Assembly: GCA_951406725.2 (NCBI GenBank)
Contig: OX597816.1
Location: forward strand, 134,788,001 to 134,852,000
DNA: 64,000 nt
Direction of reading: 5' to 3'
Source: Octopus vulgaris
Lineage: Eukaryota
Position 1 is the stretch's first letter. Each line of letters begins with the position of its first letter. Below, piece after piece: positions 21,662 to 54,850 of the stretch. The translations under genes were made by a program, and so were the position numbers. A model generated the notes under the pieces. It was not told the DNA's origin. It saw only the letters and a program-made list of their open reading frames with translations, and did no database searches.

Positions 21662-22375
21662 ATAATTAATCAATATAGGGTGGCAAAAAAAATTTTGTAG
21701 AATTTTTTTGCCACCAGCGGCCTAGTGGGAAAAAATTAAATAGTCATAGACCATTTATAAGTTCAACATCACAATCAAGGAACGGCCATAATAGGCCATT
21801 CACCCACTAGAAATAACAGCCAAAGCTTCAACCGCAAAATAACATTAATTCCGCAAACCAGGAGAAAATTAAAAAACATTTACCCTGTAATTTCTTATAC
21901 GATGCACCGTTTCATCTACTGTTTAATGGTAAACTAACCTGATTAAATTAAATCAAGCCAATCTTCCATAGGCCCTTATTGATTAATTATGAATTTTCTG
22001 GTTGATTCCGTAATGGAATCGGCAGCTTATATTTATTTGCTGCCGATAAATTTGGCGCGAGTGCGATGATTTGAAAATTTTAGGTCAGATATTGCCGAGG
22101 CAGGGACAGAAATGCCTCGTGAAAATATCTGTTCCGATCTGGCTATTTCTTACTGACGAATCTAAGGGCCTATGGAAGATTGGCTTGATTTAATTTAATC
22201 AGGTTAGTTTACCATTAAACAGTAGATGAAACGGTGCATCGTATAAGAAATTACAGGGTAAATGTTTTTTAATTTTCTCCTGGTTTGCGGAATTAATGTT
22301 ATTTTGCGGTTGAAGCTTTGGCTGTTATTTCTAGTGGGTGAATGGCCTATTATGGCCGTTCCTTGATTGTGATGT
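21662..22375 (+). mobile_element. Non-coding hammerhead-containing element (retrozyme / non-autonomous PLE) with inverted partial copy
   Basis: 213-bp inverted repeat (21766-21978 / 22163-22375, no mismatch seen), 184-nt spacer, flanked by (TA)n; contains a hammerhead. Confidence 0.8.
22145..22251 (+). ncRNA. Type I hammerhead ribozyme (intact core, long stem II insert)
   Basis: Stem I ATTTCTTA/TAAGAAAT; CTGACGA; stem II ATCTA..TAGAT; GAAA; stem III CGGTGCATCG; GUA cleavage triplet (cut after 22243). Confidence 0.85.
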
Positions 22376-38580: not shown

Positions 38581-39130
38581 TTTTCAGCTCATGATACAGT
38601 GCATTCCAGACGTTTTAAATACTTCAGATTAATTTTTAAGTAGCACAAAACTCTGAACTTCTTCAAAGTAGGAAGCTCTGACTTCAAAACACTTGTACAG
38701 CTCCAGCCATTTCGTGGTGACCCCATGGTATTCAAGACGCTTGTCACAACCATCATCATCTTCAGCTTGGAGAACAGCCAAAAGTCATAGGGAGCAAGGT
38801 CTGGACTGTAGGGAAGGTGAGGGACAGTTTTGATCCCCTTCTCTGTCAAGTAGTTGGTTGCCAAGATGGAGTTGTGGACAGGTGCATTGTCGTGGTTCAG
38901 GAGCTCTGACCTTTTGCGACAATATTTCTTTCTAAACTCTCTCAAATCCTCCACAAAGTAGTCTTTGTTGACCGTTTGGCCAGAGGAAACCCATTGGAAC
39001 AGATGATGCTCATGCTGTCGAAAAATGGAATCATCATGATTTACTGATGGAATTGCTTTGCCTGACTTCTTGAGCCAGCGAAAAACATGCTCGGCCCATG
39101 CAAGTTAATCTATAAGGAGTCTGGAGTATA
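38581..39130 (-). pseudogene. Mariner transposase relic
   Basis: LLNHDNAPVH...VPHLPYSPDLAPYDFWLFSKLK (HDNA and YSPDLAPxD motifs). Confidence 0.85.
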
Positions 39131-40496: not shown

Positions 40497-40530
<34 letters not shown>

Positions 40531-40532
<2 letters not shown>

Positions 40533-41289
40533 CAACAATTGAGGGTAAAATTAATTAATTAATCAATTTCACCAAGTGTTCAGTATGTAAAAGGACCATT
40601 TAAGGCGAATTCAAAATATTACATTATATAATTAGGGCTTAGTAAAATAAATTACTTTGCCACATACTGAACTTAGTAGAAATAGCAGCCAAAAAAAATT
40701 TTCTTAGCATTTCTACTACTTAAAGAAAATTTCTCTCAGATAATGTTTACTCCAGACAGCTCACGAAGGTTTGGAGGTAAATACAGAAAAATATCACAAG
40801 TACATAGATCGTTTGAGTACGTCAACGTTTCAAGATTAGCCAAATAAAATCAGCATTTCTTTCGTCAGCTCAAAATTTCTTAATTTGGATTTGGAAACAC
40901 TAAAAAGAAGGAACTTTACCTATCAGCGAACTTGTCGCTTCAGATGAACCACTCCAACTAAACAGTGTCAACAAATTCAAAATGCGTAGGCGTAAATCTC
41001 TGCACTCCCTATTCCACCCACGTGGTCTATCTAGCAAACATTATATTTTAACCGCGAGAACCGAGGCAGTATGACCGAGAGAAATGAATTATAATATCAA
41101 CAATTGAGGGTAAAATTAATTAATTAATCAATTTCACCAAGTGTTCAGTATGTAAAAGGACCATTTAAGGCGAATTCAAAATATTACATTATATAATTAG
41201 GACTTAGTAAAATAAATTACTTTGCCACATACTGAACTTAGTAGAAATAGCAGCCAAAAAAAATTTTCTTAGCATTTCTACTACTTAAA
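40531..41289 (-). mobile_element. Non-coding hammerhead-containing element: 565-nt monomer plus 194-nt direct repeat (retrozyme / non-autonomous PLE)
   Basis: Direct repeats 40531-40724 and 41096-41289 (one mismatch seen), flanked by (TA)n, with a hammerhead in the unique part. Confidence 0.8.
40812..40874 (-). ncRNA. Type I hammerhead ribozyme (intact core)
   Basis: Minus strand TTTGAG-CTGACGA-AAGA..TCTT-GAAA-CGTTGACG-TA-CTCAAA; GUA cleavage triplet. Confidence 0.85.
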
Positions 41290-41337
41290 TATATATGTAT
41301 GTATATGTTTGTGTGTGTGTGTAATTATATATATATA

Positions 41338-41388
<51 letters not shown>

Positions 41389-42007
41389 GTGTGTGTGTGT
41401 ATGATCGCGTGTACACACACTCAGACATGCGTAGAAATGTATGAATTATGATCAGCAGGGAGTCTGTGAATCTGAGCCACAGTATGAACGAACGAAAGCG
41501 TGTGAATTATTCGTGTATGTGAAATCACTACAGAAATTTATATATAGATATATATATTCTTGAGCAATTAGATGTGTGTCGTGGGGTGGCACTTGAAAGA
41601 GTTGGTGTGAGTATGAAAAGAGAGAGAGAGAGAGAGAGAGAGAGTGCGAGAGAGGAACTCAGAAATTCTAGAGACACAAAGAAAAAAAGAGGGTGATACA
41701 TTGATATAAATATATAAAAGGAATACATATTATATAAAACATTTTGTATAAAGTGTGATTCAGTAGTTCTTTTAATACTTAAACGTTATAAAATACTTTT
41801 ACTTATAATTTTATCATAATTTTTTGAAATATATATTTATGTTGTGAATATGATTTGACATATATGTTGTTTAATATATTTTAGAAAAAATGTCATTATC
41901 AAAAACGATCTAATATAGCCGTAATCTTGATCAATACCTAGTACAATACCTAGTACAATACCTAGTACAACTGCCGATGATGCCCGGGCATATACATACA
42001 TATATAT

Positions 42008-42240
42008 ATTTCTTTACTACTCACAAGGGGCTAAACACAGAGGGAACAAACAAGGACAGACAAACGGATTAAGTCGATTACATCGACCCCAGTGCGTAAC
42101 TGGTACTTAATTTATCAACCCCGAAAGGATGAAAGGCAAAGTCGACCTCGGCGGAAATTTGAACTCAGAACGTAATGGCAGACGAAATACCGCTAGACAT
42201 TTCGCCCGGCGTGCTAACGTTTCTGCCAGCTCGCCGCCTT
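42008..42240 (-). mobile_element. SINE family M, full length
   Basis: Reverse complement of the 1883-2114 consensus. Confidence 0.9.
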
Positions 42241-42258
42241 CATACTTATATATATATA

Positions 42259-43088
42259 TTAGGTTGGCAACTAAGTTCCCGCCGTTTTTTTAATTAAATT
42301 TTTTTTAAAGGTTTAATAATAAATAACAACTAATTAATCACTAATGTATTCACCCTTATTATTTACAACTTCTTCCCAACGTTCAACAAGATTTTCAGTA
42401 CCTCGTTGATAGAAATCACCCGATTTCGACTCGAAAAATTGATCCAACCAAGCTCTCAATTCTGCATCAGTTCTGAACGAAATTTCGTGCATAGCATTTG
42501 AAAGAGATCGAAAGAGGTGGAAATCCGTTGGTGCCAAATCAGGAGAGTACGGCAGGTGTGGCAGCACTTCCCATCCGTGCGTTTGAATGGCTTCCTTGGT
42601 CATATTGGCGATATGAGGGCGGGCGTTGTCGTACAGCGGAAGAACTCCATGCTGACGATTAGGTCTTTTCTCTTGAATAGCCGTGTTGAGTCGTTCCATC
42701 TGCTGAACATAGAGTTCCGCGTTGACTACTTGGTTCCGTTCAAGCAATTTGTAAAGGATAATCCCTTCCCAGTCCCACCATACACACAACATCGTTTTAC
42801 GCGGATGAAGATCTTGTTTCACGCGCAGTGTCACTTGTTTACCGGGGCTAAGCCATTCCTTTACACTGCTTCATATTGATGCACAGCACCATTTTTCGTC
42901 GCCAGTAACAATTCGGTAAAGAAATCGTTGCTTGTGTCCATGAGTTGAGCGGTGACGAGCAAGCAAACCAGCGGAGATTGTGGCTCATTGATTTTTGTTG
43001 TTGTCACTTAAAGCATGCGGAACCCATACTCCATACTTCTTAACTTTTCCTAGCGAGTGAAGATGCTTCTCTATAGCAGTGTGGGAGC
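42259..43088 (-). mobile_element. Mariner transposon (3' TIR and catalytic domain), 5' truncated
   Basis: WVPHAL, IVTGDEKW, YDNARPH and YSPDLAPTD motifs (ORF 42334-42834); TIR TTAGGTTGGCAACTAAGTTCCCGCCGTTTT after TA. Confidence 0.9.
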
Positions 43089-54194: not shown

Positions 54195-54850
54195 AAGTCA
54201 ACCGAAATACTACCGAAATACTACACCAGATTTAAAAATACTTCCCTACATCTCCACACATAACCTTAGAAACAATGAAGCCTTCAACATTATCATCCAA
54301 AATCTACCCATCCTCACAGGGGATAAAACAATGAACAAAATTTTAGGCTCACACATAATTATCAAAAGCATAACGCAACCTAAATCATTGAAAAAAAATA
54401 TTAACCAGCGCAAGACTATATCCATTAAAAACGGAGCCAAAAGTGAAAAAATGTGGTCGACCTAACTGTGGTACATGCCCCCACCTTTTGGAGGGTTCAG
54501 AGTTCCACTTTAAACAAGGTGAAATATTTAAGATTAAATCAAATTTCACCTGTGCCTCGGAAAATCTAATCTATGCCATTACATGCTTAGGGTGTGGTAA
54601 TCATTATTTTGGCCAAACAAGGATATCACTCCGTCGAAGAACCACTCTCCACAAAGAACAAATTCTCCACCCACAATACAGTCAGATACAGGTCAGTGAA
54701 CACATAGAAAGGTGTGCTAGGAACCTTAATCCGAATTTCCTAATTTTCCCCTTCTATCAATGTTCACAGAACACCTCAGTACAACAAAGAATGAATAAAG
54801 AGGCAACTTTCATCAATAAATATCTTCCACAACTCAATATGAACACATAA
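54195..54850 (+). pseudogene. Penelope-like (Neptune-type) ORF 3' part: linker, Zn finger and GIY-YIG endonuclease, frameshifted
   Basis: ILPYISTHN...QPKSLKK, then CGRPNCGTCPHL, FTCASENLIYAITCLGCGNHYFGQT...LRRRTTLHK...VSEH...KEATFINKYLPQLN. Confidence 0.9.

Follow-up and report, generated by a model that had tools for sequence, protein, structure and literature searches.

A young 1.34-unit insertion of a hammerhead-bearing, non-coding repeat family (a non-LTR retrozyme) in Octopus vulgaris, and its probable copying by a Penelope-like enzyme

In the window that we analysed (the whole 64,000-nt stretch of Octopus vulgaris contig OX597816.1), 759 bp begin and end with the same 194 nt. What kind of element leaves one unit and a third of itself behind, and from what template was it copied? 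An earlier note on this DNA had described a 565-nt monomer with a terminal direct repeat and an intact hammerhead, and had attributed the 1.34-mer to reverse transcription around a circular or multimeric RNA, or to a template jump by a Penelope-like element. Our answer is that 1.34 units of a non-LTR retrozyme, a non-coding repeat family with a hammerhead, were inserted here recently. Reverse transcription through more than one unit and the link to Penelope-like elements both stood up; circle and template jump remain rivals, and most of what follows is concerned with weighing them.

The coordinates of the repeat are readily re-derived. Positions 40531-40724 and 41096-41289 agree over 194 nt with a period of 565 nt and, as the note had it, differ once (G at 40637, A at 41202); exact identity runs 2 nt further left, to 40529/41094, via the ATAT that the element has in common with the flanking (TA)n. 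The base at the mismatch is private to the window copy (1 of the 147 insertions covering that site), and the difference most likely arose at or after insertion. Together with the 97-99% identity of the 40 best-scored genomic candidates, this bears out the claim that the insertion is young. The 565-nt unit has no long ORF, and as RNA it is predicted to be strongly self-paired (MFE -157.2 kcal/mol; z -6.68 against 100 shuffles). Only one hammerhead is present in the window copy and it lies outside the direct repeat, so that this copy is unable to release a cut-to-cut monomer by itself. No further copy of the unit was found elsewhere in the 64-kb window. Site B (Table 1) is not an end in the window copy, and a 10-nt possible remnant of it at 41322-41331 was rejected as indistinguishable from chance in TA-rich DNA.

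Table 1. Features of the insertion and its surroundings, in window coordinates; unit positions m1-m565 are numbered in the sense of the hammerhead.
Feature	Coordinates	Strand	Remarks
(TA)n target microsatellite at 3' end	40505..40532	.	
Initiation site A: fixed 3' end (m565)	40529..40533	-	ATAT common to element and (TA)n target
Complete 565-nt non-coding unit	40533..41097	-	m1 = 41097, m565 = 40533
Conserved 3' structured region (predicted) common to sister families	40533..40725	-	RNAalifold, 14 sequences
Initiation site B: ~m473-489, AT-rich	40609..40625	-	lies 76-92 nt upstream of site A; TA microhomology leaves the exact base uncertain
Type I hammerhead fold	40812..40874	-	predicted cut after GUA, between 40818 and 40817 (m280/m281)
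5'-truncated upstream unit (m374-565) forming pseudo-LTR	41098..41289	-	length varies copy to copy
TA/TG microsatellite at 5' end	41290..41400	.	discrete target-site duplication not readable

The complete minus-strand hammerhead of the earlier note is upheld by prediction, with the same cut site. Every type I element is there, read from 40874 to 40812: stem I (TTTGAG/CTCAAA), the core CTGACGA, stem II, GAAA, stem III as A-C-G-(TTGA)-C-G-T, and GUA. This is the sole hammerhead core matched by our descriptor in the 64-kb window; the genome holds 298 exact copies of the core pattern, and the reversed control gave 0. A search of Rfam returned 0 matches at the gathering threshold and 11 weak, unrelated matches at E<=10, with no match to a hammerhead model. 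Among 15 copies (that of the window and those of sister families) both sides have changed in 14 of the 18 named pairs, and 90.7% of the cells of the alignment pair, against 71.5% in shuffles and 27-42% in slid controls, the contrast with the shuffles being inflated by related rows among the 15 copies. The exception is pair 10.1-11.1 at the base of stem II, which is A-U here, where G-C is usual; no more than 2 of the 15 rows have a standard pair at this place. Since compensatory changes keep the fold across families that are 65-82% identical in their best-aligned parts, we take the hammerhead to be under selection. The remark that the short stem III may favour dimeric cleavage also gains from the predicted folds: stem III together with its flanking pair makes a 10-mer that is complementary to itself, the two central pairs being G-U, and a double hammerhead from two copies is predicted at -30.2 kcal/mol, compared with -9.6 for the best monomer fold, to which the monomer hammerhead, at -9.2, is slightly inferior. 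Such a double hammerhead would fit the dimer model as PMC4209133 presents it. Self-cleavage is thus a prediction from folds, to be read beside the report that 8 of 9 predicted retrozyme dimers from Xenopus failed to cleave in vitro (bioRxiv 10.64898/2026.07.22.740005, in the part available).

How large is the family, and how do its members begin and end? A similarity search of the genome (2.8 Gb, 227 contigs) returned 1543 candidates, and it is the best 40 of these 1543 that were scored for the identity given above; with exact patterns, the 24 nt immediately behind the cut were counted 409 times, and 3' junctions of site A with (TA)n 466 times. Please note that the sample parsed in full, 256 arms in 150 distinct insertions, is non-random, having been drawn from the top matches and the pattern matches, mostly on contigs C1-C5. 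Four loci were dropped before counting (L035, L101, L232, and L233, comprising an apparent segmental duplicate of L034 and re-fetches), as were arms shorter than 20 nt, 13 arms of less than 85% identity, and insertions touching the edge of their locus. The 150 insertions consist of 31 single arms ending at site A, 23 single arms ending at site B, 94 with inverted arms, and 2 of other form. The unit is dispersed over many contigs, with arms of up to 2011 nt and head-to-tail multimers of up to 3.56 units; 21 of the 150 insertions have an arm with two or three intact hammerhead cores, and these could be source loci. In 4 putative RNA runs, contigs span most or all of the stretch compared (the 3' tip excluded), some of them across the cut; strand, ends, and circles are indiscernible in them.

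The ends carry much of the argument. Of 256 arms, 124 have their 3' end at site A (m560-565), 106 at site B (~m471-489), and 26 elsewhere, and (TA)3 follows 120 of the 124 site-A ends and 98 of the 106 site-B ends (218 of 230 together). The 5' ends are spread round the unit, and 84 of 229 arms run on from m1 directly into m565. The earlier note had looked to variable permutation points among paralogs as support for a circular template; the expectation holds for the 5' end and fails for the 3' end, which is fixed at one of the two sites in 230 of the 256 arms. Variable 5' ends with fixed 3' ends are the tail and pseudo-LTR (pLTR) signature of Penelope, a signature that does not prove a circle by itself, and they make of the 194-bp repeat in the window a Penelope-type pLTR, in which a 5'-truncated unit lies ahead of a full one. 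The two sites are also used together. When both outer ends of an inverted insertion could be classified (n = 78, leaving out 16 with one unclassifiable outer end), the combination was A+B in 76, A+A in 2, and B+B in 0 (p = 2e-20 against an expectation of 0.5). Similarly, 5 of the 23 single-B copies also have a short or diverged inverted A end. The footprint described for Penelope-like elements in the available part of PMC8557442 comprises partly tandem copies, 5' arms that are inverted, a tail on one side, and a bias to (TA)n, and the octopus copies reproduce it as a 5'-truncated partial tandem, an inverted 5' arm, two 3' ends separated by a tail, and the same (TA)n bias. The available text of PMC11167929 likewise reports that in vitro, with the Anolis enzyme, the tail was traced to two internal initiation sites and both DNA strands were cut and extended.

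The family belongs to a class that is already known, the non-LTR retrozymes as PMC7229834 defines them, as far as that source was available. Taken as a family, it has a type I hammerhead in each unit, a short, low-GC, non-coding unit, and head-to-tail copies with at least two hammerheads; its repeats vary in length, and their 5' ends are spread round the unit, as expected where there is no true LTR. Repeats of fixed length with fixed ends, as in LTR retrotransposons and LTR retrozymes, are not what we found, and the hammerhead is of type I, not the type III that plant retrozymes have in the LTR. Neither hammerhead nor ribozyme occurs in the main text of the 2026 octopus repeat annotation, in the form available (PMC13282606).

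Variation within and between insertions bears on the template. At 64 sites that are polymorphic in the family, with homopolymers and end regions masked, tandem units of one insertion were discordant in 13 of 126 informative comparisons and inverted arms in 18 of 267 (pairs from within one insertion being non-independent), compared with 56426 of 61226 (92%) between insertions. Where a variant was confined to one insertion, the units and arms of that insertion had it in common, for example all four segments of L009. Each insertion thus appears to pass through one monomer haplotype. There are exceptions: one arm of L062 has tandem units discordant at 4 of 6 sites, possibly a switch between two RNAs, and L019 is a weaker case with two discordant sites. 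In addition, inter-unit differences recur in a second insertion in only 4 of 117 cases, all 71 two-arm junctions are distinct, and no shared flank abuts the 5' end among 54 single-arm copies, from which it follows that the insertions are not copies of read-through transcripts preserving the layout of a parent. The hammerhead cut is crossed by 155 of 229 arms and has left scarcely a scar (1 indel in 166 crossings). A handful of loci had suggested that 5' ends accumulate at the cut; this was not borne out (5 observed near the cut, 3.8 expected, p = 0.32).

The reading that we favour, and which we hold to be rather better than an even bet, is that of a non-autonomous non-LTR retrozyme, likely copied by the reverse transcriptase (RT)-endonuclease of a Penelope-like element and likely from a single small circular RNA. 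On this account, loci with two hammerheads (the 21 of 150) would be transcribed, and the double hammerhead would excise a 565-nt monomer, to be ligated into a circle. A Neptune-type protein would cut both strands of a (TA)n tract; the two DNA ends would then prime on one and the same RNA, one at site A and its counterpart at site B, with AU/TA pairing as an aid. From there each cDNA would travel round the template for a variable distance, and the arms would be joined head to head, or one arm would be lost or be too short to see, as in the window copy. A ligated circle would explain why each insertion has one haplotype, why arms cross the cut seamlessly, and why no junctions are inherited.

The most serious competitor, which we regard as unlikely by comparison, is Penelope-type mobilisation of a linear, uncut, terminally redundant transcript such as a 1.x-mer, in which the enzyme jumps by homology within one RNA, leaving its 5' repeat for its 3' repeat and so regenerating multimers, and the hammerhead is a bystander in copying or has its role at a different step. 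Seamless junctions, a single haplotype, and the lack of a stop at the cut are predicted by such a jump no less than by a circle, and L062 resembles a switch between two RNAs. Moreover, PMC11167929, in the part available, states that the Anolis enzyme uses unprocessed RNA as its main substrate and that the ribozyme is dispensable, mutants still inserting. Against this must be set the compensatory changes that have kept the hammerhead fold between sister families, the failure to find inherited junctions or 5' flanks in the 71 junctions and 54 single arms, and the compact self-pairing of the whole unit, which recalls the circular retrozymes of PMC7229834 as far as that text was available. What tips the balance towards the circle, in our judgement, is selection on the hammerhead taken with the circular RNAs that the same partially available source demonstrates for coral, mussel, and axolotl retrozymes; a circular monomer RNA of the octopus unit is accordingly putative, by analogy with those.

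Two other readings take the repeat itself for something else. Near-identical direct repeats on either side of a unique middle are just what a true LTR pair or a local duplication of DNA would look like, and fixed ends like those of an LTR pair, or a duplication unique to this locus, were what the earlier note had named as counting against its own proposal; the genome holds hundreds of copies instead, dispersed over many contigs, many with inverted arms and each with a repeat of different length, and the flanking DNA is absent from the repeat. The variable 5' ends refute a true LTR pair, and we give this reading as a whole practically no chance. It is also very improbable, and for the sampled copies largely refuted, that the unit is a mere truncated 3' end (pLTR) of an autonomous Penelope-like element and no independent family. 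The available parts of PMC8557442 and PMC4209133 do describe hammerheads of this kind in pLTRs and 5' truncation in most copies of such elements, and the copies that we parsed are a sample of those in the genome. Set against that, the arms that run from m1 directly into m565 reach 3.56 units, and 0 of 60 hammerhead-sampled 7-kb loci have an ORF contiguous with the unit, the nearby Penelope-like ORFs being separate insertions.

Which enzyme, then, might copy the unit? The footprint of the insertions points to a Penelope-like partner, and the same genome holds many intact 781-aa frames with RT and GIY-YIG domains whose pseudo-LTRs also end in (TA)n, as well as other Penelope-like families. We call the candidate Neptune-type on the strength of its C-terminal GIY-YIG domain and CxxxxCxxC linker, matched to the description in PMC8557442 (in the part available). 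No RT and GIY-YIG ORF was found in the unit or contiguous with it in the 60 loci, and around Penelope-like ORFs (40 loci) there was no nucleotide similarity between the unit and the ends of the Penelope-like copies. Of 6136 candidates from the GIY-YIG search, 150 were scored, a pattern for ATG after the 3' end had 214 matches in the genome, and comparison of five Penelope-like proteins with the collected loci yielded no autonomous partner.

Several observations on Penelope-like elements were made along the way. The window contains, at 54199-54847 (+), the 3' part of a Neptune-type Penelope-like ORF: its GIY-YIG region, in two frames, 56-62% identical to the 781-aa protein. The family of intact 781-aa RT and GIY-YIG frames is very young and occurs in many places (for example L141 and L146, on C16 and C5); a long frame lies upstream, the pseudo-LTR is of 456 bp at 99.3%, and the 3' UTR contains tandem repeats. 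Hammerhead-like motifs were read by eye near the 3' ends, in the 3' UTRs, of four Penelope-like families (L146, L147, L148, and L159), with a U3-A8 core variant in three and a palindromic 4-nt stem III in all.

The 3' region of the unit reaches beyond the family. A pattern made from it has 1,845 genome matches, and the 30 loci examined include several sister families of the same layout, with two 3' ends beside (TA)n and inverted arms; in one of them, L205, the unit is ~530 nt and a full turn is visible. RNAalifold predicts 26 pairs, 5 of them with compensatory changes, and a small hairpin is also kept; a 9-bp helix (40671-40663 with 40587-40579), paired in 13-14 of the 14 rows, encloses site B. 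There is thus moderate support for a conserved fold of this region across the sister families. Their hammerhead core lies upstream; some families have it intact, whereas in others it is altered. Altered cores (L190, L200, L217, L220, and others) read TTGAT/CAA, with an extra A before GAAA and stems I and II still covarying; they may be active variants or decayed ribozymes. The count of a 14-nt motif from the 3' region (19,088) was rejected as a measure of family size, since among 30 loci inspected for that motif many proved to be copies of a different repeat; the pattern with 1,845 matches is a longer one. This is a second, very abundant short repeat (L165, L181, L185, L187, and others) that contains the motif, is otherwise unlike the unit, and occurs in 107-bp tandems; it is possibly an old derivative. 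In the window itself, two inverted copies of a repeat with a variant of the 3'-region motif lie ~500 bp apart, at 21809 and 22320.

It is useful to set the family beside the systems already described, as each is presented in the available parts of the sources. With the metazoan non-LTR retrozymes of PMC7229834 and 10.64898/2026.07.22.740005 it has in common a non-coding, AT-rich, self-paired unit, head-to-tail copies, one canonical-type type I hammerhead per unit, whose stem III is short and palindromic, the presence of Penelope-like elements alongside, and no fixed repeats of the LTR type. Its 565-nt unit is longer than the 150-450 bp of the former paper and within the 51-972 bp of the latter. 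The retrozymes of those papers form long arrays, whereas most octopus copies lie scattered as 0.1-2-mers and have inverted arms; two fixed initiation sites and A+B pairing, mapped here, are unmapped there, as far as those texts go. Circles and cleavage have been demonstrated for metazoan retrozymes, whereas the octopus family is known from sequence and folds. The second of these sources argues that non-LTR retrozymes originate from, and depend on, Penelope-like elements; the Xenopus retrozymes have pLTR homology to an autonomous element, of which our 40 loci gave no counterpart for the octopus unit.

Among Penelope-like elements themselves, as the available parts of PMC8557442 and PMC4209133 describe them, the endonuclease-positive Neptune type resembles the octopus family in its pLTR partial tandem, inverted 5'-truncated arm, optional tail, (TA)n bias, and hammerhead near the 3' end. 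The octopus unit differs in having no ORF, a tail of 76-92 nt (theirs is 30-40 bp), and a hammerhead 200-285 nt from the ends. Non-autonomous elements of Chlamys such as MRC1 (PMC8557442) also form pLTRs and insertions of multiple copies arranged head to tail, and were once mistaken for LTR elements; unlike the octopus unit, they are similar in their 3' end to their autonomous partner, and most have no canonical hammerhead. Anolis Poseidon (PMC11167929) likewise starts at two internal sites, both downstream of its hammerhead, and has an AT-rich target of which both strands are cut and extended. No difference in start site between the strands was seen there, whereas the DNA ends in octopus use different sites in 76 of 78 insertions, and its RNA is not homologous to the target, whereas sites A and B both have AT microhomology to (TA)n.

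How Penelope-like elements form tandem and inverted ends, and whether animal retrozymes borrow their enzymes, are unsettled matters in the field, and what specialists may find useful in this work is that A+B pairing is near-obligate and occurs on one haplotype. We would tentatively go further, at somewhat less than even odds: a single Penelope-type complex might prime both ends of the break on one circular RNA, using its two different, fixed sites A and B, and roll round it twice over, with the conserved 3' structure of the octopus retrozyme superfamily setting the sites. If true, the genome would provide evidence that twin priming on a ribozyme-made circle is obligate and asymmetric, and this would explain in one step the tail and the tandem and inverted pLTRs of Penelope-like elements. 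A literature search on Penelope twin priming with inverted ends returned unrelated titles only. With a young 565-nt family of hundreds of copies, two mapped sites, A+B pairing, and intact candidate enzymes, the octopus offers a compact substrate for deciding between circle and template jump in vitro.

Other repeats lie close to the insertion in the window. A SINE-like repeat stands at 42010-42245, which we take to be a common octopus repeat, and two frames on the minus strand, at 42337-42870 and 38592-39104, are presumably fragments of mariner-type transposases.
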